This document shows, piece by piece, positions 12,647 to 32,479 of a DNA stretch of 64,000 bases. This DNA is from Rhodospirillales bacterium (GTDB taxonomy: Bacteria > Pseudomonadota > Alphaproteobacteria > CACIAM-22H2). A model generated the notes under the pieces. It worked only from the letters and a program-made list of their open reading frames with translations, searched no databases and was not told where the DNA came from. How positions within the stretch are numbered: position 1 is the stretch's first letter; each line of letters begins with the position of its first letter. The stretch covers positions 24,189 through 88,188 of the forward strand of contig CANFCX010000001.1 of NCBI GenBank assembly GCA_947445225.1. Direction: 5' to 3'. The position numbers and the translations under genes were made by a program.

Positions 12647-12845
12647 CCCGACGGGGTTGGAATCAGCAAGGCGTAGTAGGGGTAGAAATGTGGGGGCCGG
12701 GAGGCCCCCACACCCCCGATAGTTTGGTGGAGTTCCCGCGCCCCAGGTTCAGGTCGGTGTGGGGGCCTCCCCGTCGGGAGAAGCCCGACCGGAATCCGGA
12801 GTCAAGCCGGCTTCGCCGGCAGGGCCCCCACGACTTCTTACTTCC
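12647..12845. repeat. Intergenic repeat block: TGGGGGCCGGGAGGCCCCCACACCCCCGATA hairpin plus ~65-nt MITE-like unit shared with 31684-31770
   Basis: 12691-12720 and 12769-12831 read directly; near-identical unit GTGGGGGCC..CGGGNGAAGCCCGAC..CGCCGGCAGGG..CCCCCAC at 31684-31770. Confidence 0.6.
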
Positions 12846-15800
12846 CTAATTCCCCTGCGCGCGCTGGCCCGGCGGCGTCGCGGCGCGCGGACCGAGGGTT
12901 GCCGGCGCGGGGATGAAATCGCGGAACAGGATTTCGTCGGTGACGGTCCACGGTTGGCCGGCGGGATTGAGATAGAAGCGCCGCATTTCTTCCAGGTTGA
13001 ACGGGCGCGAGCCGATGCGGCCGAGAACGGCGATTTGACCGCCGGTTTCATCCACGCCGCGGTCGCGGTCCAGCCCCTTGGACAGGGACAGGGCCGGCCA
13101 TGAGGTCGGCGCCCAGGCGATCAGCTCGGGTTTGGGCTCGGGGCTGAAGCCGTAGAAATTCGGCTGTTTGTCGGGCGCGGTTAGGTGGACGACCTTGAGC
13201 CCGTTCACGCCGTCGGCGACATAGGCGTAAGCGGTGGCGTTGGTGGTGCCGACGATCACGTCGTGCGCGTCGTTGATCCGGCCTTCGGCGTTGTACATCA
13301 TGTACATGAAGGGCTTTTCGGGATTTTCGACGTCGACGATCGCCAGCCCCTGTTTTTTCGCGCCGACATAGGCATAGGTGCGGGCGACATAGACGCGCTG
13401 CGGATCGTCCATCGGCACGGACGCACCCTCGACCAGGCGCGGTTTGTCGGGATGGGTTACGTCCACGACCTTGAGCCCGGTGCGGTCGGTCACGAACAGA
13501 TAGCGGAATTGCAGGGCAGAGGCGCGCGCGTCGTCGAGCTTCACAACCGCCTCCAGCTTGGGCTTCAGCGGATTGTCCATGTTGAGCACAACGATGCCGG
13601 CATCGGCGGCGACGTAGAAATAATACCCGGCGATGGTCAGGTGGCGTGCGCCCTTGAGGATGTTGTTTTCGTTCCAGGTGACCGCGCGCGTCAGGAAATT
13701 GTTGCGCGGCTCGCCATCGGCCAGCGTGTTGACGTCGGTCGCGATCAAGCCTTCTTCGGAGTCGGTGATGAAGGCGTAGTTGTAGATCGGGTGGAAGGGC
13801 TGCTCCTGATTGGTCACGCGCATCAGGTCGCCCTTGTTGCGGTCGGGATGGATGGGCTGGCTGGTGGGCAACACGACGCAGGTCGCGTTTTTCGAGGCGA
13901 TATGCGTGTCTTGGCCGAACAGGGAGAACGGCGCGCTGATGATGCGCTGCGACACGCTTTTGTTGGCGATGCTGGCGGTGTCATAGACACGCATCCCGCC
14001 CTTGCCTTCGGCGACAAACAGATATTCGCCGCGCAGTTGGAGGCACGACGCCGGGCCGCCGGCGGAATGGGTGAAGGCTCCGAAAGCCGCCGAGTTGGGC
14101 AGCCGCCGGCCGCGCGCTTCGTGTTCGGCGTAAAAATCGGGGTAGGCGTATTTGTGCAGATAACTGCCGATGACCGCCTGCGGCTCTTCGATTTCGGTCA
14201 CCTGCACGGCTTCGATACCGCCGGCGCCGCCGACCCAGGCGTTGTAGCCGACGAAATTGATGAAGTTGGTCCCTTGCAGCAGAAGCTGGGCCATGATCGC
14301 GTTGTTGTCGTTGGCTTGCGACAAATGGCAATCGGTGCAGGTCTTGGTCTCGGTCTTGCGCTCCGTATGCGGATAATGCGGGGCGAAGGCCTGGCTCGAA
14401 TAACCCGATGCGGCGATCGGCGGCTGCTGGATATAGATGCGGTCGCGGTTGATGTTCTGCGACGAAAGCACCAGCGCCGAGGTCGAGCGAATCGGCGCGA
14501 TGATGCCGTTGCGAACCGGCCCGTGGCGGCCGAGCTGGAAGATTTCGTCGCGGGCGACCTGCGGGTTGTACGTGGCGAAGTTGCGGCTTTCGGTGTCTTC
14601 GTAGTGGTGCCGCGGCGTCTTGCGATTGGCCTGGATCGGCAGATGGCAGCCGCCGCAACTGGTCGACCACGACAAATGGCAGGTGAAACACGCCATCTCG
14701 TCGTCGGGATGGGCGAGGTTTTCCTCCCCGATGCCGGGGCCCCATTTCATCGACAGATCCTTGGACATCAGCTTCGCCCGCGCCGCCTTGGCGTTGTATT
14801 GCGGGCTGCTGGGATCGACGCTGTCCTTGACCAGGCTCATTTCCCATTCCAGGCCCGGCCACACCGACGAACGCTGAAACAGCTTGTTGTCGCGCCATTC
14901 GAACCGGGGACGGCCGTCGCTAAGGCGCTTCAAGGCCAAATCGCGCCCGCCCGGCGGCGCCGCCGGGCCGCTGGTGAGCAGCGTCGGATACGCCCTCGCC
15001 GTGCCGTGGCAATCGGCGCATTGGATTTCGATGGCCGCGGCGACCTCGCCGACGATATGGCCGTTGTTGTGTGCGTCCTGCGAGAAATGGCAATCGACGC
15101 ATTGCATGCCGACGTCGACATGGATCGACGACATGTGGACGGCCTTGCTGAATTTGTCCTTGTCGTCATTGGCGACTTGTTTGCCCGCCGCATCCAGCAG
15201 ATTGCCCTTGCGGTCGCGCTTGAAGATGGCGCGGAAGTTCCAGCCATGGCCGTGATAATCGGCGAATTGCGTGTCCTTGAGCGTCGGGTTGAGTTCCGCC
15301 ACCTTCCTGAGGAATTCGGCGTCGCCCCATTTGCCGCGGATGGCGGCTTCTTCGGGGTTGCGCATCAGGATGGCGTGTTCTTCCTCGGTGGTCGGATATT
15401 TCTGCTTCGCCGGCCACATCGCCTGGGCATCGGATTCATAGTCCCACATCGTGAAGCCGAGCATCGAGTTGAGGAAGATGTTCGGCTGATGCATGTGGCA
15501 GATCATGCATTGGCTGGTCGGGATGGCGTTGGTGAATTCGTGTTTGATCGGGTGCCCGGATTCACCCTTGCGGATGGTGGGATCGGCGGTCTGGGTCGTG
15601 CCGGTGCTGCCGAATTTGGCGTAGGGCCCGGAATGGCGGGGGTCGCGGTCGTTGGCGTAAACGACGTGGCAGGACGAACAGCCGGAATGGCGGAAATCGC
15701 CAGGCTGATCGTTGGTGCCCATCATCCACAAAAAGGGATCGTTCAGGCGTGTCTTGGTGATGTTGATCGCGGGCACGGCGATGCGCAAACCGGTGGCGGG

Positions 15801-16793
15801 CCCGCGGTTGGATTGCCGGATGTCGGGTCGTCCCGGCTCTTCCAGCCGCTGCAAAGCGCCGAGCGAATTGGGCAAGCCGATTTCGGGGAATTGGGTGCCG
15901 ATGTTGCGGCCGCCGCGCTCGAAAATGCGGAAGATGTCCCCCGGGGGGATGACCTCCCAGGCGGGCAGCGGCACCAGCTCGGGCAGGATGCCGCGTTTTT
16001 TCATCGCCTCGGTGGGCGCGACCGGAGCCTTCAGCGAGGCCGGCTGCCCATCGCGGGTATAGCCTTCGCCCAGGATGTAATTCTTGAACGGCAGGATTCC
16101 GTTGTTGTAGGAGGCGCCGCCCCACAACATCGCGCCGGTCGCCATCAGGCTGCGTTCGACCGCCTGAATGGTAAGCATGTGGCAGGCGCCGCAGGCCTCG
16201 CGCGCCACGCGCAGATCGCCGGGGTTGATGAAGCGCACATATTCCGGCGCTTCCTTGATGATCAGGGTGTAGGTCCGTTCCTGATTGGCGCTCGACGGGT
16301 AATGCCAGGTTTCGGGAAAACGCGGCAACACATGGGCGCCGTCCATCGCCGCCCGGTAAGCGGGCTCGTAGACCGGGGCGTGATGTTCTTCGGCATGGGC
16401 GGATTCGGTCGGCTTGATGACGATATGGGCGCCGGGCTTATAGCCGGCGAGCGGGTCCGGTTCATGGCTCGTGTCGGGGGCGTGCGCGGCCGCCTGGTCG
16501 CCGCCGGGCCCATGGCTGCCGGCCGGACGAACCACGGTGGGGTTGCCCCCGTGGCAATCGGCGCAGCCGATATTGAGGGCCGAGTTCTGATGCATGTTGG
16601 GTTGGTCGGTCGCGGTATGGCAGGTCAGACAGCCCGCGCTTTTGGCGTCGGCTTGGGCCTTGGTCTGCCCGGCCGGAGCGGGCGGCGTGAACGCGTATTT
16701 GATGTCACGCGGCTTTTCACCCTCGGCGGCAAAAACCGCGACGGCGACGCCGGAAGCCAACAGGATGCCACAGAATATCCGCCACCCGCGCAT
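12846..16793 (-). CDS. Secreted decahaem c-type cytochrome fused to C-terminal LVIVD-repeat beta-propeller (1315 aa)
   Basis: Signal peptide; ten CxxCH motifs (CLTCH, CADCH, CGACH, CSSCH, CMICH, CVDCH, CADCH, CFTCH, CGGCH, CTDCH) in first ~830 aa; C-terminal repeats LKVVDVTHPDKP / LAIVDVENPEKP / LKVVHLTAPDKQ typical of LVIVD repeats. Confidence 0.85.
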   Translation of the reverse strand: MRGWRIFCGILLASGVAVAVFAAEGEKPRDIKYAFTPPAPAGQTKAQADAKSAGCLTCHTATDQPNMHQNSALNIGCADCHGGNPTVVRPAGSHGPGGDQAAAHAPDTSHEPDPLAGYKPGAHIVIKPTESAHAEEHHAPVYEPAYRAAMDGAHVLPRFPETWHYPSSANQERTYTLIIKEAPEYVRFINPGDLRVAREACGACHMLTIQAVERSLMATGAMLWGGASYNNGILPFKNYILGEGYTRDGQPASLKAPVAPTEAMKKRGILPELVPLPAWEVIPPGDIFRIFERGGRNIGTQFPEIGLPNSLGALQRLEEPGRPDIRQSNRGPATGLRIAVPAINITKTRLNDPFLWMMGTNDQPGDFRHSGCSSCHVVYANDRDPRHSGPYAKFGSTGTTQTADPTIRKGESGHPIKHEFTNAIPTSQCMICHMHQPNIFLNSMLGFTMWDYESDAQAMWPAKQKYPTTEEEHAILMRNPEEAAIRGKWGDAEFLRKVAELNPTLKDTQFADYHGHGWNFRAIFKRDRKGNLLDAAGKQVANDDKDKFSKAVHMSSIHVDVGMQCVDCHFSQDAHNNGHIVGEVAAAIEIQCADCHGTARAYPTLLTSGPAAPPGGRDLALKRLSDGRPRFEWRDNKLFQRSSVWPGLEWEMSLVKDSVDPSSPQYNAKAARAKLMSKDLSMKWGPGIGEENLAHPDDEMACFTCHLSWSTSCGGCHLPIQANRKTPRHHYEDTESRNFATYNPQVARDEIFQLGRHGPVRNGIIAPIRSTSALVLSSQNINRDRIYIQQPPIAASGYSSQAFAPHYPHTERKTETKTCTDCHLSQANDNNAIMAQLLLQGTNFINFVGYNAWVGGAGGIEAVQVTEIEEPQAVIGSYLHKYAYPDFYAEHEARGRRLPNSAAFGAFTHSAGGPASCLQLRGEYLFVAEGKGGMRVYDTASIANKSVSQRIISAPFSLFGQDTHIASKNATCVVLPTSQPIHPDRNKGDLMRVTNQEQPFHPIYNYAFITDSEEGLIATDVNTLADGEPRNNFLTRAVTWNENNILKGARHLTIAGYYFYVAADAGIVVLNMDNPLKPKLEAVVKLDDARASALQFRYLFVTDRTGLKVVDVTHPDKPRLVEGASVPMDDPQRVYVARTYAYVGAKKQGLAIVDVENPEKPFMYMMYNAEGRINDAHDVIVGTTNATAYAYVADGVNGLKVVHLTAPDKQPNFYGFSPEPKPELIAWAPTSWPALSLSKGLDRDRGVDETGGQIAVLGRIGSRPFNLEEMRRFYLNPAGQPWTVTDEILFRDFIPAPATLGPRAATPPGQRAQGN

Positions 16794-16801
16794 CGGCTAC
16801 C

Positions 16802-18688
16802 TCAATAAGTCAGGATCAGATTGGCCAGGACGGAATAAAAGAGGTCCTGGCTGCGGCTGGTTTCGTACAGATCGCGCAGCCCGTCGCTCGGCACCAAGAC
16901 CGCGCCGGACAGCCGGAACACGATGTTCTGCATGAACAGAGGCCGGTAGATCGCGGCGACCGAAAGGTCATAACCGATGTCGTGATGGATGTCGGCCTGG
17001 TTGCGGAGGAATTCGAGCGAGGAGGTATCCATGAATTCCAGCTTGTTGAAATTCGTGGACAGCCGCAGTTCCGGGGTCACGTCCATGTCGGTGCCGAAGC
17101 CGAGCAGCCGGATGCCGGGATTGTTGAAATTGGATTGCCCGATTTCCTTCGACGGGCGCAGCGACGGCAACACGCCGTTGCGGGGCGAAAGGGCGACACC
17201 GCCGCCGCCGATGAAGGGGATCGACTGGCGTATCCAATAGCTGGTGTCGGCGCCGGCGAATTGCGGGTTCTCGAAGATGGCGTCGAAACCCTCTTCCCGG
17301 TTGTCGAAGGGGTCCTTGTCGCCGCTGGCGACCAAAGCGGAGGCGCGCACGCGGATCCAGTCGAAATCGATGGAAGGCTCGATCGCGGCGAAATAGGCGC
17401 GAATGTCCGACTTATCGATTCCGCTGAACTGGTTATGATCGTCGGTGCCAAAGGCGTAATAGGCCGAGCCGGTCAGGTTGAGCCGGCCGAAATGCCCGTC
17501 GCCGTTGAGGCCGAGATAGTGGACATCGTATTTGCGCGGCCGCTGGTCGCCGATCGTGGCCGGGCGCTGCAGGAAGAAGTTCTTGTCGTAGTAGAAATCC
17601 TCGCTCTCGTCGTTGACGTTGTACATATACGTCGCCTGCGAGGTGAAGCCGACCACCGGGAAATCCTGCGCATAGACATTGGCAATATAGATATCGTCCT
17701 TGCGCAGCGGCTGGCCGATGTCGTTGAGGCCGCTATTGGTGTCCTTTTCCAGCCGGCGGAACCAGGCCAGATTGTATTGATAGAGGTTGTTCGAGCGGTT
17801 GCCGAACAGTCGCGCGCCCAACTGAATGTCCTGGAACACGAAGCCGCGGAAATCCGAGGAAAACGGCTGGATGCCGATGCGGATCGAATCGAAATCGTAA
17901 CGGTCCGACACGTTGCGTAGGTGATAGTCGATGAAGCCTTCCTGGAAGGCGATCATGTTGTCGGAGCGCACGGTGCCCTGGTTGGGGTCGGCGAACAGCA
18001 CGCCGCGTTCCTCGACCTCCGCGCGGTTGTATTGAATGACCGGCGTGATGCGGAATTCGTAATCGGGCGGGCGGTAGGCGGTGTCGCCCTTGATCAGCGA
18101 GGCGCTCAAGATCACGGTCTCGACGAACACGTTTTGGTTGGTGTCGCCGAACAGATCGACGGAGTTGGCGCGCCGCGTGGTCGAAATGCCCACCGGAATC
18201 GGCGTGCGCCGCGGCTCGTAGACCGTGTCCGAAATCGCGCTGAGGTTGATGAACCAATCGTCCCACAGCGGGCGGTCGCCTTTGAGCGTGTTCTGGTTGT
18301 ACGGGTCCCACCAGCGTTCGTTGACGCCGATCGCCTCGATCAGGCGCCAGCGATCCGGGATCGGGATGAATTCGCGCGGCAACACCGGCGACGGCGGCGG
18401 CACGGCACCGGGATCGGTGATCGGAGCCACGCGCGGCGGCGCGGGCGGCGGCGCGCCGGGCCGCCGCTGATCCTGGGCGACGATGGGCGCGACGGCGCCG
18501 GGTTGGGGAATTCCGAAATTGCCAGGGCTTCTCCCCGCCGGGGCGAGGAGAGGCGATTCCTCCTTGCCGGCCCAGGCCGGAACGGGAAGGCTCACCGCCG
18601 CCAGGGCCAAAATAAGGGGCAGCGAAGCCAATCCCGAAAGTCCGACCGTCTTTGTCCGCCGGCGCATCCTAGATGACCCCGCACACAT
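16802..18688 (-). CDS. Outer-membrane beta-barrel protein (porin-like, ~620 aa)
   Basis: Signal peptide MRRRTKTVGLSGLASLPLILALAAVSLPVPAWA (ATG at 18667 probably the true start); alternating amphipathic strands; C-terminal ...LANLILTY aromatic terminus typical of OMPs. Confidence 0.7.
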   Translation of the reverse strand: MCAGSSRMRRRTKTVGLSGLASLPLILALAAVSLPVPAWAGKEESPLLAPAGRSPGNFGIPQPGAVAPIVAQDQRRPGAPPPAPPRVAPITDPGAVPPPSPVLPREFIPIPDRWRLIEAIGVNERWWDPYNQNTLKGDRPLWDDWFINLSAISDTVYEPRRTPIPVGISTTRRANSVDLFGDTNQNVFVETVILSASLIKGDTAYRPPDYEFRITPVIQYNRAEVEERGVLFADPNQGTVRSDNMIAFQEGFIDYHLRNVSDRYDFDSIRIGIQPFSSDFRGFVFQDIQLGARLFGNRSNNLYQYNLAWFRRLEKDTNSGLNDIGQPLRKDDIYIANVYAQDFPVVGFTSQATYMYNVNDESEDFYYDKNFFLQRPATIGDQRPRKYDVHYLGLNGDGHFGRLNLTGSAYYAFGTDDHNQFSGIDKSDIRAYFAAIEPSIDFDWIRVRASALVASGDKDPFDNREEGFDAIFENPQFAGADTSYWIRQSIPFIGGGGVALSPRNGVLPSLRPSKEIGQSNFNNPGIRLLGFGTDMDVTPELRLSTNFNKLEFMDTSSLEFLRNQADIHHDIGYDLSVAAIYRPLFMQNIVFRLSGAVLVPSDGLRDLYETSRSQDLFYSVLANLILTY

Positions 18689-20558
18689 TCTGCGCCTTGG
18701 TAATGCCCAGGAAGGGGGTGAACGGGCAACTGACGTAACGCAGCCGAGTGCCGCGCGGGGACAGGTTGTCCGACCGCACGGCCGGGCGCGCGTTGCTCAA
18801 TCCGTTGCCCTTGCCGCCATGATAGAGGCCAAGCGCGGCGATCATGTCGTCCTGGTCGATGCCATCGCCCGAAACGCCGACGCCGCCGACCAACACGCCG
18901 TTGCGGTAGATCGGCACGCCGCCGGCGAATATCTGGATGCCGTTGGCCAGCCGGTTGGACCCGCCGGCCGCGGCGACCGCTGCCAGCCCGGTGCAGCCAG
19001 CGGCGTTGGTGGCGTTGCCGGGGTTGGTCAGGTGATTGGCGATGTCGGTGGAGACGAGGTCGAGCTGCAGCCCGGTGCTGAACGGGCTCCATTGCTGAAA
19101 GGGACGGCTCAACGGCCCCACCGACTGGCCATCGACGCCATCGGGGAAATAGGGGCGCGCGATGTTGCCGATGGCGCGAGCGCTATACGCGATGCCGTCG
19201 GCGAAAGCGGTCGGCCCGATCAAGGACCGTGCCTGGGCAATGTAATCGACGGCCAGCGCCAGCGCGGTGATTTCCGCGCCCGCGGTCGTCCGCGAGAAAA
19301 ACACGGCGGTTCGGCCTTTTTGCAGTGACACGTCGGTGCCGAAGACGGGCGCATCGGGGGTACGCACCAAACCCAGGACCAGGCCATTGGTGTCGACCAC
19401 ACTGATGGTGACCTGGGCGTAGCTGCCCAGCGGGCGCCGGATTTGCGCACGCGCCAGAAGCGCCACATCGAGGGCATGGCGCAGGATGGAGTTGACCTCG
19501 GCGGCGGTCAGCACATTGGCCGCGCCACCCACCACGGTGGCGGCGTCGCCACCGGCGGTCGGCGGAAAACGGTTGGCGCCGGCCGCGTTTTCCAACACGA
19601 AGGCGCGGCCGTTGTTGAAGACGCCGCCCGGATCGGGGATGTAGCCCGAACCCGCCGCGCCGAAAACCTGACCGGCGATGACGGCGGCGTTGGCATAACC
19701 GGCGACCGCGACCAGCGCCCCACCGGCGGGCGGGAAAGCCGGGGCCGAGCTGGGGTTGCTGCGGAAATCGGCCGGCGTGGCGTCCGAATAGCGGAGCGTG
19801 CGACCACCGGCGGTGATGCGGTTGGCGCGAATGTCGATGGGCGCGTCGAAGCCGTTGGTCCCGGCCAGCGCGATGACCTCGTCGGGATCGACGTCGCGAT
19901 TGATGATGTCGAGATCCAGGCTGTAGACACCATCGGAGATGGCGCCGACGCCGCCGACGACCCGGCCGTTCTTGTACAAGGGGAAGCCGCCGGTATCGGC
20001 GGACAACCCGGCAGGCGAACGTTTGGGGCCGCGCGTGGCCACGCCGGGGAATTGCAGGTTCAGGTCCGAACACGGCAATTGGCTGAATTGAACGCCGAAC
20101 AGCGGGCCGCCGGGCTGTTGTTTTTCGCCGACGTTGAAATGTTCCTGGACGATCTGGCTGGCCACCCGGGTGGAAAACGCGTTGCCGGCGGACGACAGAT
20201 AAGCGCCGGTGACCGCCTTGGCGATGGCCAAGAGGGTATCGGTATTGGCGATGGCGGCGCCTTCGAGGCCGGTGGCGACACCGCGCCCGGAACTGACCGT
20301 GATCGTCGTTGCGGCGCCGGTCATGCGGAAGACGCCGAGCACGTTGCCGACGCGATCGACGACGGCGATGGTGGCCAACCGGCCGCGCGCCGTGGCCTCC
20401 GTCACCGCCTGCGAAATCACCACGCCGACATCGGCGACCGTGAGGTTCTGCGCGCGCGCCGGAGCGGCGGACAGGGCGGTAAGACCGGCTAGACCCAGCA
20501 GGACCGCGAGAACCCGCCGCGCGACATAGTTCCCGGTCATGGCGGTCCTCGCGGTCAT
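18669..20558 (-). CDS. Secreted protein with two tandem GlcG/HbpS-like (DUF336, haem-binding/degrading-type) domains
   Basis: Signal peptide; motifs RLATIAVVDRVGNVLGVFRMTGA and QVTISVVDTNGLVLGLVRTPDAPVFGTDVSLQKGRTAVFFS, plus GGVGVSGDGIDQDDMIAALG typical of GlcG family. Confidence 0.7.
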   Translation of the reverse strand: MTARTAMTGNYVARRVLAVLLGLAGLTALSAAPARAQNLTVADVGVVISQAVTEATARGRLATIAVVDRVGNVLGVFRMTGAATTITVSSGRGVATGLEGAAIANTDTLLAIAKAVTGAYLSSAGNAFSTRVASQIVQEHFNVGEKQQPGGPLFGVQFSQLPCSDLNLQFPGVATRGPKRSPAGLSADTGGFPLYKNGRVVGGVGAISDGVYSLDLDIINRDVDPDEVIALAGTNGFDAPIDIRANRITAGGRTLRYSDATPADFRSNPSSAPAFPPAGGALVAVAGYANAAVIAGQVFGAAGSGYIPDPGGVFNNGRAFVLENAAGANRFPPTAGGDAATVVGGAANVLTAAEVNSILRHALDVALLARAQIRRPLGSYAQVTISVVDTNGLVLGLVRTPDAPVFGTDVSLQKGRTAVFFSRTTAGAEITALALAVDYIAQARSLIGPTAFADGIAYSARAIGNIARPYFPDGVDGQSVGPLSRPFQQWSPFSTGLQLDLVSTDIANHLTNPGNATNAAGCTGLAAVAAAGGSNRLANGIQIFAGGVPIYRNGVLVGGVGVSGDGIDQDDMIAALGLYHGGKGNGLSNARPAVRSDNLSPRGTRLRYVSCPFTPFLGITKAQNVCGVI

Positions 20559-21025
20559 TGCGCGATACCCACCCGGAACACGCCGAATTTGAAGCTGTCG
20601 GCCGTGCGATAGGCAACGATCACGTTAAAAGGGAATTCCTGGCCGGTGAGGTCTTCCTTCAACACCTTGAAGACGAGCCGGTTGCCGACGGGCTGGATGC
20701 GATTGTCGATCAGATGGTCGGTGTCGCCGTCCCAGCGCACCCAATAGCCGAGATTGCTGCGCTGCAGCAGCAAATTTCCCCAGGGTTTGGCGATGACATA
20801 GGTGGCGAGCGGCTGATCGCCGTGCAGATCGATTTCGCGGATGATCTCGGCGGCCTCCGGGCGAATGGCGATCGGCGCCAGCATCGCACCTTCAACGCTC
20901 AACGCCTCGCCCCGGCCGGACGCCGGGGCCAGCAACGCCAACGCCATGAAAAAAAAGGTAAATCCAAATCTGGACGGACCGGCTTTCGGTCGTGTTCCAC
21001 TTGGATCGTGCGCCAACAGCGCCAT
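20555..21025 (-). CDS. Small secreted hypothetical protein (~156 aa)
   Basis: In-frame ATG (MALLAHDPSG...) downstream of cytochrome stop; hydrophobic FGFTFFFMALALLAPASG signal-like segment; 4-nt overlap with next gene. Confidence 0.5.
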   Translation of the reverse strand: MALLAHDPSGTRPKAGPSRFGFTFFFMALALLAPASGRGEALSVEGAMLAPIAIRPEAAEIIREIDLHGDQPLATYVIAKPWGNLLLQRSNLGYWVRWDGDTDHLIDNRIQPVGNRLVFKVLKEDLTGQEFPFNVIVAYRTADSFKFGVFRVGIAQ

Positions 21026-21072
21026 CCGGTCATCCCCCATTTTTTTTGCCCGGCCAACAAAGCCGCGCCACT

Positions 21073-22779
21073 TTAACGCGGCGCGCCCGTTTGGCCAACC
21101 CCCGGCGCGCCGCCGACGGCTTGCGGACGCATCGGACCCATGGCCGGCGTGTGGAAGACGTGGCAGGCCACGCAGGTCGACGGCACCAACGTAGTCACTT
21201 CTTCCCCGCCATGGCAGCGGCGGCAATTGGCGATCCCCGGGAGCAGGACCTCGGAACTGGCAACGGATTTCGGCGCGGCGTGGCAATCGACGCAATCGGT
21301 GTTTTTGTGTTTGCTGTGATCGAATTTGCCCTTGGGCATCCAGGTCGCCGCCACGAACACCGGCTTGACCCGGAAATTGGGTCTCTCGTCGAGCCGGGTC
21401 GTCCGTTCGACGAGGTGGCAACTCCCGCAGATGCTCTTGCCGTAGACGATCTCGATGGTCGCATCGGCGCGGCTGCGCGCCCAGGCCAGCGCTTCGGTGC
21501 GCGCCGCTTCCTCGATCGGCGTGCCGGCACGGCGACGCACGGCGGCCGGCGCCGTGGGATCCTCGAAACCGCCTTCGAGTGCGACGCGGCCGTAGAAATC
21601 GTTGAGGACCTTGGCGACTTCGTCGGGTTTGCCATGCGGCACTTCGCGGTCGAGCGCCTGGGCCTCGAACTTCAATTTGTGGCAATCGCGGCAATCGGTC
21701 TCCATGTCAACCGCACGCATGCCCACGCCGCCGGTCTCCGGGCGGTGGCAATCATTGCAGACCATTTTCTGCAAGCCGGTGGGGCCACGCACGCCGGCTG
21801 GCACCAAATGTTTGTCATGCGGGAAGATTAGGTTGGAATTTTCCTTCAGCGCCGGATCACCGATCGCCAACCGCGCCAGGGTCCGCGTTGCCGGGTCGGT
21901 CACCACCGACGGCCGAAATTCGGGGTGATCGCGGCCGAAATCGCTGACGTTGATCAGCTTGGTCGTGGGGATGATCGCGGTCAGCCGCACATGGCAATCG
22001 TCGCACAAGGCTTGCGCCGTCTGGATCGCCGGCTGCCGGCCTTGATGTTCCTTGTGGCAAGACGCGCAGCGAGTCTCTTCCAGTGCCGGCAGTTGCACCG
22101 TCTTCACATCGGCGTGGTGGGCGATGTCGCTGTGGCAGGTAAGGCAGGCCTGGTCCTGGACCATGATGAAGGGCCGCTCGTGGCAGGTCGTGCAATCACT
22201 CGCGAAATATTTGTGCACGCCGGAGATTTCGCCGGATTCCCATGACTTGTCCGCCGCGATCGGCATCGCCGTCATGCTTTTGTGAAGGTCGGGTATGAAA
22301 AAGGCAGCGACCGGAAGGACCAGGAAAAGCAGGAGCACGGTGGCGAACGCGGTCCACGACAATACGCGTTTGCTGAACGCGGCATCACCCAGGCGGGCAT
22401 GGCTGCGCTGCGTTAGTTCGGCGAGATCGTCTCCCAGCGGCTGCACCAATTCGACGGTAACCGCGACGCCATAGCCAGGCGGCGCTTCCACCACATCGAT
22501 CTTGTAGGGACCGACGGCGATCGAATCGCCGGGCCGGACACGACCTGAATTGGCGGCGGCGCCATTGATGGAAAGATCGTTGCTGCCAACCGCGGAGGCG
22601 TAGACCTGGCCCTCGCGCACATGTATTTCGGCGTGGTCGAGCGCGACCCGCGGATCAGGAAGATAGACTTCGTTCTTGGTGCCGCGGCCGATGCGGATGA
22701 ATTCCACGGTGGCGTCTTGGTCGCGCCGGGAGACGCCACGATTGCCGCGCCGAGTCAAATAGCCGACTTGGACAAGCAC
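21073..22779 (-). CDS. FHA domain - transmembrane helix - periplasmic decahaem c-type cytochrome fusion (568 aa)
   Basis: N-terminal FHA (IRIGRGTKNEVYLPDPRVALDHAEIHVREGQVYASAVGSNDLSINGAAANSGRVRPGDSIAVGPYKI), TM VLSWTAFATVLLLFLVLPVAAFFIP, then ten CxxCH motifs (CTTCH, CLTCH, CASCH, CDDCH, CNDCH, CRDCH, CGSCH, CVDCH, CRRCH, CVACH); GTG start with GGGAG SD. Confidence 0.85.
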   Translation of the reverse strand: MLVQVGYLTRRGNRGVSRRDQDATVEFIRIGRGTKNEVYLPDPRVALDHAEIHVREGQVYASAVGSNDLSINGAAANSGRVRPGDSIAVGPYKIDVVEAPPGYGVAVTVELVQPLGDDLAELTQRSHARLGDAAFSKRVLSWTAFATVLLLFLVLPVAAFFIPDLHKSMTAMPIAADKSWESGEISGVHKYFASDCTTCHERPFIMVQDQACLTCHSDIAHHADVKTVQLPALEETRCASCHKEHQGRQPAIQTAQALCDDCHVRLTAIIPTTKLINVSDFGRDHPEFRPSVVTDPATRTLARLAIGDPALKENSNLIFPHDKHLVPAGVRGPTGLQKMVCNDCHRPETGGVGMRAVDMETDCRDCHKLKFEAQALDREVPHGKPDEVAKVLNDFYGRVALEGGFEDPTAPAAVRRRAGTPIEEAARTEALAWARSRADATIEIVYGKSICGSCHLVERTTRLDERPNFRVKPVFVAATWMPKGKFDHSKHKNTDCVDCHAAPKSVASSEVLLPGIANCRRCHGGEEVTTLVPSTCVACHVFHTPAMGPMRPQAVGGAPGVGQTGAPR

Positions 22780-22803: not shown

Positions 22804-23661
22804 TTACCAGTAGAAGAAAACGGAGAAAACGTGGGTCGTCAGCGCCGCCAAAAGGCCGACCGACAACGGCACGTGGAACATCAGCCAAATTTCCAGGAAA
22901 GCCCGGTATTGCACGTCGCGCCGCGCGCGACCGACAAGGTCGCTCTTGCGGCTCAACAAGGTCAGCAATTTACGCACGGCGACGGCGTCTTCCACCGAGA
23001 CCTTGGTCGCGAGTTGTTTGATCCTGGCCAGCGCGCGCGAAGTCGGGCAATTGGGATCGCGGCCGGAAAGCTGACGCCACACCGACCCGCCGATCTGAGT
23101 ATTGCGTCCGGAATCGAGCACCGCCCGCGTGATCTCGTCGGGCAGTCCCATGGAAACTTCGCGGCTTTCGGTATCGAGCGCGGCGATGCGCGTGAAAATC
23201 TCGGTCAGTGTCAGCCCGCCGCGGTTCTGGGTCATCAAGGCGGGATACCGTTGATAGAAAAACACGCCGAACACGCCCGACAGGATGACCAGCATCATCA
23301 AGGTGTAGGCAAGCGTATGCACGTTCCAGCCGAACTGGAACCCGGTGTGCAGCGTGGCCACGACGATCAGCGCGAGGCCGAGATAGACATGCGCCGATAG
23401 CCAGCCCTGAAGTTTCGTCGGACCCTGGTTGTACCGCCGTTTACGTACGCCGAACCACATCAGCCACAGGATCAAGCCCGCGCCGATCGTGCCCAACACA
23501 TAACCGAGCCACGTGCCGCCATTGGGCGGGTCCAACGGGCTGTGGGCGCCGTAGACGATCGCAGCCGCCAGCGCGCCCAGGACGGCGACCTTCAAATACC
23601 GGAAGTTGCGGTAGACGAGATAGGATTGATGCATCGTCTTTTGGCTGTTGGCCGACCTCAA
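22804..23661 (-). CDS. Polytopic membrane protein with conserved intramembrane histidines (candidate b-type haem/quinol-interacting subunit)
   Basis: 285 aa, five predicted TM helices each with His (SAHVYLG, TLHTGF, NVHTLAY, MFHVPLS, TTHVFSV); TTG start overlapping upstream stop (TTGA). Confidence 0.55.
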   Translation of the reverse strand: MRSANSQKTMHQSYLVYRNFRYLKVAVLGALAAAIVYGAHSPLDPPNGGTWLGYVLGTIGAGLILWLMWFGVRKRRYNQGPTKLQGWLSAHVYLGLALIVVATLHTGFQFGWNVHTLAYTLMMLVILSGVFGVFFYQRYPALMTQNRGGLTLTEIFTRIAALDTESREVSMGLPDEITRAVLDSGRNTQIGGSVWRQLSGRDPNCPTSRALARIKQLATKVSVEDAVAVRKLLTLLSRKSDLVGRARRDVQYRAFLEIWLMFHVPLSVGLLAALTTHVFSVFFYW

Positions 23662-26057
23662 AGACCCCGGTTAGACAGCGAGAAGAATTCCTCGGGGCTG
23701 ACACGAATGGCGGCGCCGGTCGGACAGGCCCGCACGCAGGACGGGCCGCCTTCGATGCCTTTGCACATGTCGCATTTCACCGCCATCTTGCGTTTGTTCG
23801 GGTCTTTTTTCTTGCCGTGGGTGGCTTCCCAATCCTCGCCCGGCCCGTGGCCCAGCCCGAACAACATCCAGGCCAGCAAGCCCGGCTTGGCCGGCGGCTC
23901 CGCCGACATGTGAATGACGTGATAAGGACAATTGCGCTCGCAATTGCCGCAACCGATGCATTTTTCGTCGATGAACACTTCACCATTGGGCGAACGGTGG
24001 ATGGCGTCGGCCGGGCAATCGGACATGCAATGCGGGTGTTCGCAATGCCGGCACGAGGTTGGCACATGGATCGAGGCATAGGTCGGGCCGGCTTCGCGAT
24101 CCAGCCGCGACACCCCGTGATGGGTCTCGGCGCAGGCCTTTTCGCAATTGTCGCACCGCACGCACAGCGATTCGTCGATCAACAGAACGTCGGTCGCCTC
24201 GCCCAAACCTTGGTCGAGCAGGAACTGCATCAGATTCGAATGGTCGGGCCGGCCTTCCATGCGGGCGTTTTCGACGAGCCGTGCCTGGAACCGAGATTCG
24301 ACCTCGACGCGCAACTCGGGCGAGCGATCGAGCAGGCCGCGGAAGGCGCCGCCATCGAGTTTGATGGCCTCCGTCGCCACCGCCGCCCGCACCGTGGCGG
24401 TGCGCGGGCTCTTGGTCAGCAGCGCCATTTCGCCGACATAATGGCCGGCGGGGACATAGGACAAAACCACGTCGCGGCCGCCCAGGTTGCGCGCCACGGT
24501 CACCGACCCGCTGCGGATCAAATAGACGTTGTCGCCGATATCGCCTTCCTTGATCAGCACGTCGCCGGCGCTGAAGGACTGGATCGTGGCCGTGCGCACG
24601 ACATCGACCAGGTCGCGCTTGGAGACCTGCGGCGCTAGATGCGTCTGCACCTGGCGGATCATGGCGGTTTCGTCGAGCACACGTTTAGCCGCGGCGATCG
24701 AACGGGTCAGCTTGATAACCTGCCGGCGCGGGGTCTCGATCAACACGCAATCGGCGCCCGCCACCACCGTCGCCGTGCGCCGGCGGCCGGAGATCAAACC
24801 CATCTCGCCGAAGAATTCGCCGGTCTTCAGCGTCACCTTGATCGCTGGGTTTTCGGCGCTGACCTGGACATCGACCGACCCCGACAGGATCGAATAGAAG
24901 CTGTCGGAATAATCGTTGCGCTTGAAAACGATCTCGCCCTGTTTGGGCACATGGACGTCGCTGTCGAGCAGGAATTCGCGAAGCTGCAGCTTGGTCAACG
25001 AGGAGAACATCGGCACGCGCTGCTGCACGCCCTCCAGGAACTGCGAGACGGTCACCCCTTGCAGCCCCGTGAGTTTTGCCTCGAGCAGCGGCTCGTCCGC
25101 CGGCTTCACCTCATGCCCGAGGATATATTCGACCACCTCGTAGCCCTGGTTCATGCAGTGTTTGATCAGGGGATAACCGGCGAGCGCGCCGATGATGTAC
25201 AGCCCCTTCACGTTCGATTCGTAGCTGTCGCTGACCCCCGGAACCGAGGCCGGATCGGCGTTGGGGAACACGATGCCGCAGGCCTCGACGAATTTGCGCG
25301 GCGGCAGGGCGCCGATACGGGCGATGACCCGGTGGCACTTGACCACCGCCTCGCCCTCCGGCGTTTTCAGGAAAATGGCGCTGGGATCGGTCTCGACCTT
25401 AATGACCTTGGTATTGAAATAACACTGGATGCGGCCTTCCTTGATGGCCGATTCGATCAGCGCGACGTTGCCCGCCTTGGCGCGCGCGAAATCACCCATG
25501 ACGTTGACGACGATGACCTCGTTTTGGGCGGCCAGCGCGATGGCGTTTTCGAGCCCGGCATCACCGGCGCCGATCACAACGATGGTTTCGTCTTTGTATT
25601 CTTCCGGGTCGTCGAGTTGGTACTGGACGTTGGGGCCGGTTTCGCCGGGTACGCCGAGGGTGCGGATATTGCCCTGCAACCCAATGGCGAGCACGACGGC
25701 ATCGGCGGTGAGCGTTTGTTTGTTGGCGAGCGTGATCGTGAAGATCGCGCCTTCCTTCTTGATGCCCGCGACATCGGCGTTTTGGCGCAGGTTGAATTTC
25801 AACTCGCCGGCGCTTTTGTCCCAGGAACCGAGGATGGTTTCGCGGGCGCCTTCCTTGAATTGAAGATCGCTGCGCAGGGGCAGGACCTCCGGCGTCGCCA
25901 TGACGTGTTTTTTCTTCTGATACTTGTAGATCGTATCGGAAAGATGGGTGGTGCGTTCGAGCAGCACATAAGACGCGCCACGCTTGGCCGCGCGTCCCGC
26001 CGCGCTTAATCCGGCCGGGCCCGATCCGACAATCGCGATCGCATAGTGTTCGGCCAT
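23658..26057 (-). CDS. FAD/NAD(P)-binding oxidoreductase fused to two cNMP-binding domains and a C-terminal 4x[4Fe-4S] ferredoxin domain (799 aa)
   Basis: GSGPAG and GAGDAG dinucleotide folds; two CRP-type cNMP signatures (FGEMGLISGRRRTATVVA; VGEMALLTKSPRTATVRA); four Cys clusters CVRCDNCEKAC, CRHCEHPHCMSDCP, CIGCGNCERNCP, CDMCKG..CVRACP. Confidence 0.85.
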   Translation of the reverse strand: MAEHYAIAIVGSGPAGLSAAGRAAKRGASYVLLERTTHLSDTIYKYQKKKHVMATPEVLPLRSDLQFKEGARETILGSWDKSAGELKFNLRQNADVAGIKKEGAIFTITLANKQTLTADAVVLAIGLQGNIRTLGVPGETGPNVQYQLDDPEEYKDETIVVIGAGDAGLENAIALAAQNEVIVVNVMGDFARAKAGNVALIESAIKEGRIQCYFNTKVIKVETDPSAIFLKTPEGEAVVKCHRVIARIGALPPRKFVEACGIVFPNADPASVPGVSDSYESNVKGLYIIGALAGYPLIKHCMNQGYEVVEYILGHEVKPADEPLLEAKLTGLQGVTVSQFLEGVQQRVPMFSSLTKLQLREFLLDSDVHVPKQGEIVFKRNDYSDSFYSILSGSVDVQVSAENPAIKVTLKTGEFFGEMGLISGRRRTATVVAGADCVLIETPRRQVIKLTRSIAAAKRVLDETAMIRQVQTHLAPQVSKRDLVDVVRTATIQSFSAGDVLIKEGDIGDNVYLIRSGSVTVARNLGGRDVVLSYVPAGHYVGEMALLTKSPRTATVRAAVATEAIKLDGGAFRGLLDRSPELRVEVESRFQARLVENARMEGRPDHSNLMQFLLDQGLGEATDVLLIDESLCVRCDNCEKACAETHHGVSRLDREAGPTYASIHVPTSCRHCEHPHCMSDCPADAIHRSPNGEVFIDEKCIGCGNCERNCPYHVIHMSAEPPAKPGLLAWMLFGLGHGPGEDWEATHGKKKDPNKRKMAVKCDMCKGIEGGPSCVRACPTGAAIRVSPEEFFSLSNRGL

Positions 26058-26244
26058 GCCGGTCCGCCCCCTCGGACACGTCAGCGTTTGTCGAGACCCC
26101 CCCGAACCCGAATCGACGCTTTACGAAAGGCCCGCGCCGCCAGGATTTCATATACACGTTAGGGTTATAGACCGACGGTTGTCAATTTCGGAGTGTCCTT
26201 CTACAGTGCATTTCTGTCCGGTCGAACGCACCCGCAACAGGGGG

Positions 26245-27933
26245 AACCATCGGGTGACGAAGCGGCAAGCTTTGCATCGCCTATCGCTAAAATCCGCGGC
26301 CGGCGCCGTGGCGTTGGTTTGCCTTGCCGGATCGGCGGTGGGGCAGGTCGCCGGCAGTGGCTGGATCGTCGATCCGCGATCGGGTTGTGCAACCAGCAAT
26401 CCCTTTCCCAAGGACGGCGAGAGCATCGCTTGGTTTGGCGGCTGCCGCGACGGCAAACTCGACGGGCCCGGCCTGCTTATCTGGTACCGAAGCGGGTTTG
26501 AGGCCGAACGCGACGAGGGTTTTTTCCAAGGCGGGGAGCTGGACGGACCGGCGACGATCACCTTCGCCGACGGTAACTCCGTGCGCGGCGATTACCGCAT
26601 GGGTGAACGCCATGGCGAGTTCCTCGTCCATCAGCGCGACGGAACCGCCCTTTATCGCCTCTACGATCTCGGCCGGCTCGCCGCCGAACGCCCGGCCACC
26701 GGCGAAGATGCCGTGCGCCTCCAATCGCGTGCGACCGCCGCCGTCGCCCCAATCGCACCCACGCCCGTGCCGGCCGCCCCACCGCGCGCCCAAGCGGCGG
26801 CGCCTCCTGCCATGGCCGAACCGGAACCCAGGCCGATGGCGGCCGCGCCGATCGAGCCGCTGCGGCCGCAGCCCGCCCCGCCACCATTGGCCAGCCTGAC
26901 CCCACCGCCACCGCCGCCGCCGCTGCCCGCCCCCACCCGGCCTTCGACATCGGCGGCATTCGGCAGCGCGGCGCGCAGCGACGTCGAAATCGACCTGGGC
27001 GTGTTGGCGTCGCTGCGGGCGCCATCGGCGGCGTCCTCCAGTCGATCGACCGCGCCGGTGAAGCTGCGTCCGCCTCGGGCGGCCGCGCCAACGGCGGCGA
27101 CGCGACGCGCCCCGGTCCAGGCCGCGGTTCGGCCCGCCGTGTTCGTCGATGCCTCGGTGATCGACGGTCTGGGCGCGGTTCGCGCGGTCGCCGCCGCCAG
27201 GCCCGCCGCCACCCGCGCCAACTTCGTCCAGCAATCCGCCGCGCTGGTGCCGGATTGGTACTTGCCCGCGGGACAGACTTTCGCTGCGGCGGACTACACC
27301 CCAGCCGCCGCGCCGATCTCCGCGGTCACGCCTGAAATTCTTTTCGCCGAGGGCTACCGCCACGAGCGCGACGGGCGCATGAGCCAGGCCGAGGCGCTCT
27401 ACGATACCGTCTACCGCCTCTATGCCGAAACGCCGATGGCAGTCCTCGCCGGGGAACGCCTGGCCTGGGTGCGGCAGCAAACCACCGGTTTGCCCATGCC
27501 GCAGCAAACCATGCTGGCCGCCGCCGGAAGTGCCTCGATCGGGCAGTCCACGACCCCGATCGGGCGGTCAACCGCGCCGATCCCGCCGGCGACGACACCA
27601 ATGTCGCCCGCGACCGCGACTTTCGCGCCGCCGCAGCCGTCGGCGCCGCCGGTGCAGTCCGCGCAAATTCCGGTCGCCGCCGTGGTGCGTTCACGTGTGG
27701 GCGCCTATCTGTGCACCGTCGATGGGCTGTATTCCAACAGCTCGCGCTGGTGCGGCGTTGTCCGCCGTGAATATGACCGTTATTTCGAGGTCGAGGTCAG
27801 CAAGGTGACGATCAAGACGCCGCTGGCCGTGGGCTTTAACAGTTCGGCCTGTACCGGCAACAAGTTCATCGGCTATTTCTCTTTCGGCGAGCGCGTCTGG
27901 GTACCCCAGAATTGCATGGCGGAGACTCTTTAA
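26245..27933 (+). CDS. Secreted MORN-repeat protein with Pro/Ala-rich linker and Cys-containing C-terminal domain
   Basis: GTG start 26245 with GGGGGAA SD; signal peptide VTKRQALHRLSLKSAAGAVALVCLAGSAVGQ; MORN-like repeats WFGGCRDGKLDGPGLLIWY..GFFQGGELDGPATITFADGN..GDYRMGERHGEFL. Confidence 0.6.
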   Translation, partial: NHRVTKRQALHRLSLKSAAGAVALVCLAGSAVGQVAGSGWIVDPRSGCATSNPFPKDGESIAWFGGCRDGKLDGPGLLIWYRSGFEAERDEGFFQGGELDGPATITFADGNSVRGDYRMGERHGEFLVHQRDGTALYRLYDLGRLAAERPATGEDAVRLQSRATAAVAPIAPTPVPAAPPRAQAAAPPAMAEPEPRPMAAAPIEPLRPQPAPPPLASLTPPPPPPPLPAPTRPSTSAAFGSAARSDVEIDLGVLASLRAPSAASSSRSTAPVKLRPPRAAAPTAATRRAPVQAAVRPAVFVDASVIDGLGAVRAVAAARPAATRANFVQQSAALVPDWYLPAGQTFAAADYTPAAAPISAVTPEILFAEGYRHERDGRMSQAEALYDTVYRLYAETPMAVLAGERLAWVRQQTTGLPMPQQTMLAAAGSASIGQSTTPIGRSTAPIPPATTPMSPATATFAPPQPSAPPVQSAQIPVAAVVRSRVGAYLCTVDGLYSNSSRWCGVVRREYDRYFEVEVSKVTIKTPLAVGFNSSACTGNKFIGYFSFGERVWVPQNCMAETL

Positions 27934-29117
27934 TGGCTGATCGGTTCAAGACCCGTCTTTTGGTCACGAGTTTTCTGACCGGCGTCGCCGTTGCCGGGAT
28001 CCTGACCGGCGCACCCGATCGGGCCGAAGCGCAAACCGTGCTGTCGATCGGCTCCCTGGACGGATTGAATACCTTCCTCTCCGGCATGGACGCGGCCTTG
28101 CGCGCGGCGCGCGTGGCGGGCGATTCGGCGAGCGCGGCCGGCACCGGCGATCTGACCGTCTGGCACAATCCTAGCGAGGCCCGTAGCTGGTCGGACTCCG
28201 CCGCCGCCGCGGACGACCCGTGGACAAAGGCCAATCTGAAAGTCGTCGATCTGTTCACCCAAATGGGTGGGGAACGTATGGACCGCGCCCTTGTGTTCCG
28301 GCGCGGCGCGGACGGCTTCTCCGCCGCCATCGACGGCATGGGCGCGGCCTGGTTCGCCGCGGCCGAGGCCGCTCAGGTCGGGTTGCTCCGCCAATTGGTC
28401 AAGGACAGCGCCGCGGTGCCCACCGCGCTTAAGGACGCGGTCGCCGACGCCGATGCCGAGACCTTGGGTGATGTCGTCGCCGCGGTGGCGCAAGCCGCGC
28501 GCAGCGGCGTGATCTTCCTGACCCGCGGGGGCACGGCCACCGTCACCATTCGCGACCCCCAAATCAGCGTCGCCGGTGGCGCGCCCTTTGTGTTGTCGCC
28601 CAGCGGCATCGTTGTCGGCGACATCGCGGTTTCCGGCGCCACCCAATTGTCGGTGGCGCTGACCGCGCCCGGCGACATCGCCGACGGCCAGCACCTTCTC
28701 TATGTCTACAATCCCGGCCGCGCCTTGCTGGCGGCCGCCGAATTCCAGATTTCGATCGCCAACGGGGCGACCGTCGCCGCCCTGCCGGTTTCGGCGACGG
28801 CTCCAGCTTCGGGTGTCGCCCTTCTCCCCGCCAATGGCAGCATCGATGGCCGCGTCGCCTCGGGACAGGAAGCGGTCTACCGCTTCGACCTGCTCGCCCC
28901 CGCCGCCGTCGCCATCCATTCGACCGGCCCAACCGATGTTTTTGGCCGGCTCGAAAACGCCAATGGGACGGTGCTCGCCGAAAACGACGATGGCGGCAGT
29001 TGGTACAATTTCAGGCTGGCCCGTAACCTCGCCGCCGGCACCTATTACCTGCGGGTGCGCCATTGCTGCTCCGGCAATGGCAGCTTCACCCTGAACACGG
29101 CGACGGCGGCGCAGTAG
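27933..29117 (+). CDS. Secreted protein with C-terminal pre-peptidase (PPC)-like beta-sandwich domain
   Basis: TAATG overlap with upstream gene; signal peptide; C-terminal GQEAVYRFDL..GPTDVFGRLENANGTVLAENDDGGSWYNFRL..AGTYYLRVRH matches PPC-type domain. Confidence 0.55.
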   Translation: MADRFKTRLLVTSFLTGVAVAGILTGAPDRAEAQTVLSIGSLDGLNTFLSGMDAALRAARVAGDSASAAGTGDLTVWHNPSEARSWSDSAAAADDPWTKANLKVVDLFTQMGGERMDRALVFRRGADGFSAAIDGMGAAWFAAAEAAQVGLLRQLVKDSAAVPTALKDAVADADAETLGDVVAAVAQAARSGVIFLTRGGTATVTIRDPQISVAGGAPFVLSPSGIVVGDIAVSGATQLSVALTAPGDIADGQHLLYVYNPGRALLAAAEFQISIANGATVAALPVSATAPASGVALLPANGSIDGRVASGQEAVYRFDLLAPAAVAIHSTGPTDVFGRLENANGTVLAENDDGGSWYNFRLARNLAAGTYYLRVRHCCSGNGSFTLNTATAAQ

Positions 29118-29122
29118 CAGTA

Positions 29123-29156
29123 ATGGGGGCCGCAGGCCCCCACCCCCGATAATTGT
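29123..29156. repeat. ATGGGGGCCGCAGGCCCCCACCCCCGATA hairpin element (same family as 1331-1350, 12691-12720, 31741-31770)
   Basis: Read directly in the intergenic gap between convergent genes. Confidence 0.55.
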
Positions 29157-31295: not shown

Positions 31296-31342
31296 CGGAT
31301 AATCCCCCTGCGCCGATTATAGGTGTGTTGCCGGGAAAACGC

Positions 31343-32393: not shown

Positions 32394-32479
32394 GACGCCC
32401 ATCCTACCGGCGGCCCGGCAAAGCGGCAATGCGAAGCGCGGCCTTGCCTCGCCGGTATGAAAGACGCAACCTATCTCCC

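Follow-up and report, generated by a model that had tools for sequence, protein, structure and literature searches.

The described systems closest to the one reported here are two gene clusters, both known from bioinformatic descriptions only. He et al. 2017 (PMC5566968) defined 'PCC4' as a porin with 4-, 5- and 10-haem cytochromes and a five-helix inner-membrane protein carrying SGxxG and two Wx3Hx13H motifs, with a subgroup that has an Fe-S (pfam13247) gene upstream. The ptdABCDEFG cluster of a 2024 preprint (bioRxiv 10.1101/2023.11.21.568154) is of the same kind: PtdE has cyclic-nucleotide (cNMP)-binding and 4Fe-4S domains, PtdF is a membrane protein resembling ferric reductases, and the decahaem cytochrome PtdG is termed 'periplasmic'. 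We analysed an operon of similar layout in a 64,000-nucleotide stretch of a Rhodospirillales bacterium genome (assembly GCA_947445225.1, contig CANFCX010000001.1, positions 24,189 to 88,188), referred to here as the window. Its genes, which we call A to G, include one for a decahaem cytochrome, C (21073..22779, minus strand), that carries an N-terminal forkhead-associated (FHA) domain. The role of this domain is the main question addressed here.

PCC4 and ptd resemble A-B-C, as matched by layout, in having a 10-haem cytochrome, an inner-membrane protein of about 280-300 residues with five transmembrane helices, SGxxG and two Wx3Hx13H motifs, and an upstream Fe-S/cNMP-binding protein. Two related loci (L070 and L071) show the PCC4/ptd layout itself, with relatives of A-B-C beside a tetrahaem, a pentahaem and a porin-like gene. 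However, the PCC4 and ptd papers call the decahaem protein 'periplasmic' and mention neither an FHA domain nor a membrane anchor, and C has both. The combination of a porin with tetrahaem and pentahaem cytochromes that defines PCC4 and ptd is also absent from the window. The 4- and 5-haem proteins are replaced by E, with two HbpS-like domains, F, an unrelated probable barrel, and G, a decahaem-LVIVD protein. We found no description of this E-F-G outer module in the literature.

A fusion like that in C has been noticed once before. The Ferrigenium straubiae protein 'NHC' (bioRxiv 10.64898/2026.01.22.701106, section 6.3.2) is described as a nonahaem cytochrome that is anchored in the membrane and has an FHA domain in the cytosol. 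The authors considered the combination of FHA and multihaem domains unreported before, favoured a CymA-like link to quinone and left the FHA domain unexplained. As described, NHC is like C in its cytosolic FHA domain, single transmembrane helix, periplasmic multihaem domain and neighbouring five-helix and [4Fe-4S] proteins. It differs in having nine counted CxxCH motifs, where some members of the C family have a non-canonical tenth, and in its gene neighbours nirK and SHP. A sequence-only reading of the window was not aware of any other FHA-multihaem fusion, which overstated its novelty. Names such as 'FHA domain-containing protein' and 'cytochrome c3 family protein' already stand on some C homologues at NCBI, the 2026 Ferrigenium preprint precedes us, and PCC4 in 2017 and ptdEFG in 2024 described the cassette without the FHA domain. 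Compared with the literature we found, the new elements are the degenerate FHA pocket, the exclusivity of the FHA-membrane module and the envelope-spanning variant of the operon. The fusion itself was already noticed but is uncharacterised.

Architecture and family of the FHA-cytochrome fusion

C is a protein of 568 residues with a GTG start, and its reading frame agreed exactly with the earlier description. The FHA profile PF00498 matched residues 28-90, inside the first 100 residues where the domain had been expected, over the full length of the profile (1-67) and at 31.2 bits against a cutoff of 20.7. In an AlphaFold2 model built from 50 homologues, residues 1-111 (22447..22779) formed a confident beta-sandwich, with a predicted local distance difference test score (pLDDT) of 85-96 and the eleven strands of the FHA fold. 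A single hydrophobic helix follows at residues 144-162 (22294..22350; hydropathy 2.75), in which Pro156 is kept in 201 of 201 family members. The rest of the protein, residues 163-568 (21073..22293), holds ten CxxCH motifs, at residues 196, 212, 238, 259, 341, 363, 451, 496, 519 and 536; no variant haem motif was found in the C sequence. It cleared the cutoffs of four Pfam multihaem cytochrome families, including PF14522 (55.6 bits), PF14537 (40.7 bits) and PF02085 (34.5 bits). The alignment also showed ten further invariant histidines, as in multihaem cytochromes of the c3/c7 class III type, which fits ten bis-His haems.

Averaged over the 201 members, the 15 residues before the helix have a net charge of +2.24 and the 15 after it -0.19, the positive-inside pattern of a helix with its N-terminus in the cytoplasm. 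Residues 1-120 showed no signal-peptide-like features. Haems of the c type are attached in the periplasm, and together with the N-in helix this places the FHA domain in the cytoplasm and the haem domain in the periplasm. The orientation of the helix, and the cytochrome-maturation (ccm) genes beside the operon at one related locus (L002), suggest that the haems are indeed attached and that the domain is periplasmic. The sequence-only description of C as an FHA domain joined through one transmembrane helix to ten CxxCH sites, with a cytoplasmic N-terminus, was therefore sound, in the profile search and the structural model as well as in the charge bias.

Between the FHA domain and the helix lies a conserved juxtamembrane linker, residues 112-143 (22351..22446). 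The AlphaFold2 model puts a low-confidence helix at residues 116-125 (pLDDT 46-66), and the near-invariant columns of the region, which hold in the 201-sequence alignment, are E110, L111, P114, G116, D117, S126 and R138.

The family is large. A word-indexed search found at least 402 homologues of C; the best 120 of these are 39-92% identical to it, most are full length or nearly so, and 117 have ten CxxCH motifs. An exhaustive HMMER scan with the FHA domain, linker and helix as the query (residues 1-170) gave at least 221 clusters at 50% identity with E<=1e-10. Among the matches listed, 83 of the 87 full-length representatives bear haem motifs, ten CxxCH in 79 and nine in 4, and the other four are generic multi-FHA proteins without any. 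At least two of the four nonahaem representatives (P0246 and P0296) have an extra non-canonical motif, CTGAGCH or CAKGCH. The scan thus indicates that this FHA-membrane module is attached only to this deca- or nonahaem cytochrome. No relative of C lacking the FHA domain was found that could serve as a natural control; the sole candidate, P0067 (461 residues), has the domain and a C-terminal frameshift. With one genome scanned per species, at least 300 species genomes have a relative of C. The hosts are mostly Rhodospirillales and other Alphaproteobacteria, with some Gammaproteobacteria and Nitrospira, and those in culture include Oceanibacterium hippocampi, Desertibaculum subflavum, a Zavarzinia sp. 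and Ferrovibrio. One sub-group of homologues of about 688 residues (P0071, P0083, P0094, P0095, P0098 and others) has some 100 extra, Ala-rich residues separating haem motifs 8 and 9.

The phosphothreonine pocket

We read the pocket positions from the alignment to GarA and OdhI, which are also the best structural matches, and counted them in the 201 family members. The canonical Gly-Arg of the beta3-beta4 loop is present as Gly31-Arg32 and is almost invariant (Gly31 in 200, Arg32 in 198). The phosphate-binding Ser-Arg of GarA, found in the 'VSRRHA' of the beta4-beta5 loop, aligns to Ala46-Leu47. Position 46 is Pro in 45 members, Leu in 43, Ala in 40 and the canonical Ser in 26, and position 47, canonically Arg, is Leu in 170. 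His49 is present in 107. What this loop conserves instead is Asp42 (185 of 201) and Arg44 (176 of 201, or 88%). The 'S-x-N-G-T' of the beta6-beta7 loop aligns to residues 64-68, where C has Asn67 without the NG(T). Across the family, Ala, Gly and Ser predominate at position 67, and only three members have an NG in this loop. The conserved Asn72-Gly73 of C belongs to the later beta7-beta8 turn, not to the beta6-beta7 loop. C has neither the beta4-beta5 Ser nor the canonical beta6-beta7 Asn of phosphothreonine readers. By alignment, then, the canonical pocket of the C family is degenerate: GarA and OdhI keep the full pocket, whereas the C family keeps only the Gly-Arg, two of three residues that touch the phosphopeptide being gone. 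Because most of the residues that read phosphothreonine have been lost, the domain is more likely to be a docking piece than a kinase sensor.

The sequence-only reading had suggested phosphorylation-dependent docking or regulation by a Ser/Thr kinase, and had named a search for kinase genes as a check. We searched the window and, to 10 kb on either side, 83 related loci in all six frames with a regular expression that did not cover PP2C phosphatases or atypical kinases, and found no Hanks-kinase catalytic-loop motif. Nor was there a kinase or phosphatase among the other open reading frames scanned in the window. Together with the scarcity of the canonical Ser and NG and the prevalence of Leu47, this leaves the suggestion without support.

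FHA domains can work in other ways. The top structural matches of the C domain include the GarA-KGD and KIF13B-centaurin structures, both precedents for FHA binding that does not depend on phosphorylation, and in YscD and EssC degenerate FHA domains serve as membrane-proximal scaffolds. Unlike C, none of the FHA domains of GarA/OdhI, KIF13B, YscD/PrgH or EssC/YukB is fused to a cytochrome. Three secretion-related or similar families were considered for the C domain and rejected: the type III secretion YscD/PrgH family (PF16697) at 25.9 bits against a cutoff of 33.2, the type VI secretion protein TagH (TIGR03354) at 26 against 120.25, and GltG, also below its cutoff.

The A-B-C core and its outer genes

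C lies in a tight co-directional operon with the order A-B-C-(D)-E-F-G. We looked for its genes by tblastn at the 83 loci, which come from Alpha- and Gammaproteobacteria, Nitrospira and others, and found C at 83, B at 80, A at 79, E at 70, F at 67 and G at 64, nearly always in the same order. The proposal that C works with the neighbouring FeS flavoprotein, the product of A, is well supported by the presence of that gene at 79 of the 83, and of the two halves of the sequence-only interpretation it has the better support. At L070 and L071 the outer genes have been replaced, as described above, and in the two closest genomes (L004 and L005, 92-93% nucleotide identity) they are missing, with A-B-C kept in each case. 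As A-B-C persists through swap and loss of the outer genes, we regard it as a core unit with exchangeable outer modules.

Profiles and motifs identify A (23658..26057, minus strand) as a cytoplasmic protein of 799 residues with three kinds of domain. A TrxR/YpdA-like FAD and NAD(P)H domain lacks the redox CxxC, two cNMP-binding domains have intact FGE...R-T-A motifs, and a HycB/NrfC-like domain, matched by PF13247, has 16 cysteines in four complete ferredoxin motifs, corresponding to four predicted [4Fe-4S] clusters.

B (22804..23634, minus strand) is an inner-membrane protein of 276 residues with five transmembrane helices; its open reading frame reaches 23661 and homologues start at Met10. 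Its motifs W87x3H91x13H105 in helix 3, S128GxxG132 in helix 4 and W259x3H263x13H277 in helix 5 are invariant or nearly so, and His91, 105, 115, 263 and 277 are invariant in 46 sequences. The inner-membrane proteins of the PCC3 and PCC4 clusters have these motifs as well. The two Wx3Hx13H motifs predict a dihaem b protein, with the ligand pairs His91/His105 and His263/His277 each 14 residues apart on two helices. PF01292 was matched by 46 of 46 homologues, Ferric_reduct by 14 and DUF4405 by 13, with the B of the window itself sub-threshold for all three. The AlphaFold2 model of B has a pLDDT of 79.5. Between helices 4 and 5 is a cytoplasmic helical insert of about 120 residues (136-255), which matched no family and contains invariant Thr188, Gly191, Gly192, Cys205 and Arg247 and near-invariant Thr144 and Thr151. 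This insert may provide a surface on which A or the FHA domain docks.

Parts of this arrangement are familiar. In Geobacter CbcL a dihaem b domain of the PF01292 type is wired to a multihaem c domain, and in FdnH-FdnI and HybA-type systems to a four-[4Fe-4S] subunit. The PF01292 matches of the B homologues and the HycB/NrfC-like C-terminal domain of A recall these proteins. In A, however, the FeS domain lies in the cytoplasm and shares a polypeptide with a flavoprotein and cNMP sensors, and the c haems belong to another protein, C, which has an anchor and an FHA domain of its own. There is no sequence membership in the Tmc and Hmc systems of sulfate reducers, as matches to TmcA and HmcA fell far below cutoff. 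Compared with the eukaryotic NOX/FRE ferric reductases, the Ferric_reduct match is sub-threshold and B has five transmembrane helices rather than six. Membership of the NapC/NirT, DmsE/MtrA, OmcA/MtrC, TmcA and HmcA families was rejected, all being far-sub-threshold NCBIfam matches.

We then compared how the parts of the operon diverge, using the six proteins A to C and E to G of the window and of 47 complete loci. Distance matrices of sub-regions were compared pairwise (mirror-tree with partial Mantel tests), each partial r being corrected for how far the remaining regions have diverged on average. In C, the haem domain co-varies with E, F and G (partial r 0.48-0.54). The FHA domain tracks the FAD domain of A (0.24) and transmembrane helices 1-4 of B (0.28), and is uncorrelated or negatively correlated with the FeS domain of A, the loop of B, E and G. 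The linker tracks helix 5 of B (0.445) and the FAD domain of A (0.29). Permutation gave p = 0.001 for the FHA, haem-domain and linker-helix 5 correlations and 0.007 for the linker with the FAD domain. The FHA domain, linker and transmembrane helix of C are the fastest-evolving parts of the operon, with mean distances of 0.62-0.69 against 0.27-0.36 for G, the FeS and FAD domains of A, and F. Since partial Mantel tests are anti-conservative on related sequences, we count the co-variation as a hint only: a weak but coherent pattern in which each half of C seems to evolve with the partners in its own compartment.

The outer genes follow on the same, minus, strand. D (20555..21025) is the variable member, present at 45 of 83 loci; it encodes a protein of 156 residues whose N-terminal segment is hydrophobic and which matched no family. 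E (18669..20558) encodes an exported protein of 629 residues with two HbpS-like (GlcG/DUF336) domains, PF03928 matching in two stretches at 74.9 bits. F (16802..18688) encodes an exported protein of 628 residues with a signal-like N-terminus, no transmembrane helix and no haem, and nothing in Pfam, NCBIfam or the PDB matched it. All 59 of its homologues end in Tyr or Phe (...NLILTY), as outer-membrane barrels do, so F is probably an outer-membrane beta-barrel. G (12846..16793) encodes an exported decahaem cytochrome of 1315 residues, with ten CxxCH motifs (Cytochrome_C7, 26.2 bits) and a C-terminal LVIVD beta-propeller (63.7 bits). It is 63-73% identical across loci, and a PDB sequence search found no relative. 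C and G are the only c-type cytochromes among open reading frames of at least 80 residues in the 64 kb. Residues 555-604 of G gave a local 50-residue match (E 1.8e-15, though at 56 bits against a cutoff of 800) to ExtM, a c-type cytochrome of the Geobacter selenite/tellurite reduction operon.

A GC-rich hairpin with a stem of 8-9 bp and a T-rich tail spans the stop codon of C (21062-21085, minus strand), where the core genes A-B-C give way to the accessory D-E-F-G, and may be a partial terminator. A scan for promoters and terminators found no more such sites in the region than in shuffled controls.

The region holding E, F and G (12724-20559) and a second segment (26267-31586) are both absent from L004 and L005. 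A XerC/D-type integrase gene (11669..12646, plus strand) ends about 80 bp from the left edge of the first. The second contains a GspD secretin (29157..31295), a PPC-domain reading frame (27912..29117) and another reading frame (26056..27933). We considered the secretin as a link to a secretion system and rejected it: it lies about 6.4 kb upstream, on a 5.3-kb segment that the closest relatives lack, and we identified no other secretion gene in the operon. The wider surroundings (1360-7078 and 32429-46200) are ordinary chromosome, with F1 ATP synthase genes and a cobalamin cluster (CobO, CobQ, CobD, CbiC, CbiG and methylases), and priA lies at 8633..10888. At other loci a gene for a Cytochrome_C554-like tetrahaem protein of about 445-485 residues often stands beside the operon (L001 21611-end, L002 340-1680, L003 19870-21204, L018 13601-15055, L080 11709-13097), and at L002 ccm genes lie on both sides of it; there is none within the 64-kb window.

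Proposed electron flow and role of the FHA domain

The interpretation we prefer, with a probability of about 0.45, is that the FHA domain is a phosphorylation-independent docking or assembly domain on C, that C is the haem wire of an A-B-C redox module, and that the module is an outward conduit. In this scheme NAD(P)H would reduce the FAD of A on the cytoplasmic face, and electrons would cross the four predicted [4Fe-4S] clusters of A to a cytoplasmic-side b haem of B (His91/His263). From there they would pass to the periplasmic-side b haem (His105/His277), the two haems being stacked across the membrane. If all ten c haems of C are loaded, they would provide the onward path from B, making C an inner-membrane-anchored periplasmic wire. 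In the source genome the electrons would then leave C for the outer module, made up of E, F (probably a porin) and G (the decahaem cytochrome with the propeller).

The FHA domain, lying just under the membrane on the anchor of C, would dock the soluble A and pack with B, with no need for phosphorylation. The docking surface would be formed by the loops that carry the conserved Arg32, Asp42 and Arg44. The sequences themselves establish the domain identities, the conserved ligands, the logic of the topology, the conservation of the operon and the degenerate pocket; the loading of cofactors, the contacts among A, B and C, the binding partner of the domain and the outward direction of electrons are inferred. 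The cNMP domains of A would gate the drain of electrons. A membrane-bound class III adenylate/guanylate cyclase with a Cache-like sensor domain is encoded about 17 kb from A (42664-44505, minus strand), and this enzyme may supply the gating nucleotide.

We favour flow in the outward direction, since NAD(P)H has a low potential and the membrane potential helps electrons to move from the N-side to the P-side. Flow in reverse would be doubly uphill for electrons derived from Fe(II) or nitrite. A more specific proposal is that the FHA domain is a membrane receptor that recruits A, as a cNMP-gated NAD(P)H dehydrogenase, to the dihaem-b/decahaem wire. The whole would then be a split machine of the NOX or ferric-reductase kind that carries reducing power from the cytoplasm across both membranes to the cell surface and bypasses the quinone pool. 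We hold this more tentatively, and on balance think it doubtful.

Several observations count against phosphorylation-independent docking and suggest that the domain may be a working phosphothreonine reader with an atypical pocket built on Arg32 and Arg44. A Ser/Thr kinase whose gene lies elsewhere would then mark A, B or C, and the FHA domain would switch the conduit. The Gly-Arg dyad, which provides the main phosphate ligand, is invariant, and Arg44 of the beta4-beta5 loop is highly conserved. The nearest structures are bona fide phosphothreonine-binding FHA domains from actinobacterial kinase pathways, and B offers possible targets in its cytoplasmic threonines 144, 151 and 188. However, the Ser that contacts the phosphopeptide is missing in about 87% of members and the Asn in about 98%, no Hanks kinase is linked to the operon in 84 genomic contexts, and the two intact cNMP-binding domains of A apparently supply regulation already. 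We therefore consider a phosphothreonine switch unlikely. The domain might instead associate with itself or act as a scaffold, as in the type III secretion proteins YscD/PrgH and the type VII proteins EssC/YukB, clustering C or positioning it under the outer-membrane complex independently of A. That is distinctly improbable, as canonical FHA domains outscored those of secretion systems in the structural comparison, C does not reach the PF16697 cutoff, and the divergence of the FHA domain follows A and B rather than the outer components.

C could also be a quinol dehydrogenase or quinone reductase like NapC, CymA or NrfH, along the lines proposed for NHC in the Ferrigenium preprint, in which case B would be structural, A unrelated or loosely coupled, and the FHA domain an accessory regulator. 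A single N-terminal transmembrane helix followed by a periplasmic multihaem domain is indeed what NapC/NirT proteins have. However, no NapC/NirT (Cytochrom_NNT) match was found at E<=0.01 in Pfam or NCBIfam, the first CxxCH lies 34 residues past the helix, and to judge by the alignment each of the ten haems is bis-His. B, moreover, has the complete dihaem-b signature and is co-inherited with C at 80 of 83 loci, and we think it very unlikely that C is an enzyme of this type. The probability that is left falls to a vestigial FHA domain or to something we have not considered.

The docking interpretation has practical consequences. With the pocket degenerate, a protein partner rather than a kinase should be sought first, and with hosts such as Oceanibacterium hippocampi, Desertibaculum subflavum and Zavarzinia sp. 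in culture, the question is directly testable. The module is common in freshwater and marine bacteria, including lineages that cycle iron, nitrogen and sulfur, and its components are experimentally uncharacterised. If A-B-C does link NAD(P)H directly, by electron transfer, to haems in the periplasm or outside the cell, it would be a quinone-independent route through the inner membrane, and a layer of signalling, through cNMP and possibly through the FHA domain, would have been added to extracellular electron transfer. Recruitment of A by the FHA domain, if it occurs, would give the fold a novel role, that of a phosphorylation-independent adaptor in a respiratory or extracellular electron-transfer complex, in hundreds of aquatic species of Alphaproteobacteria, Gammaproteobacteria and Nitrospira.

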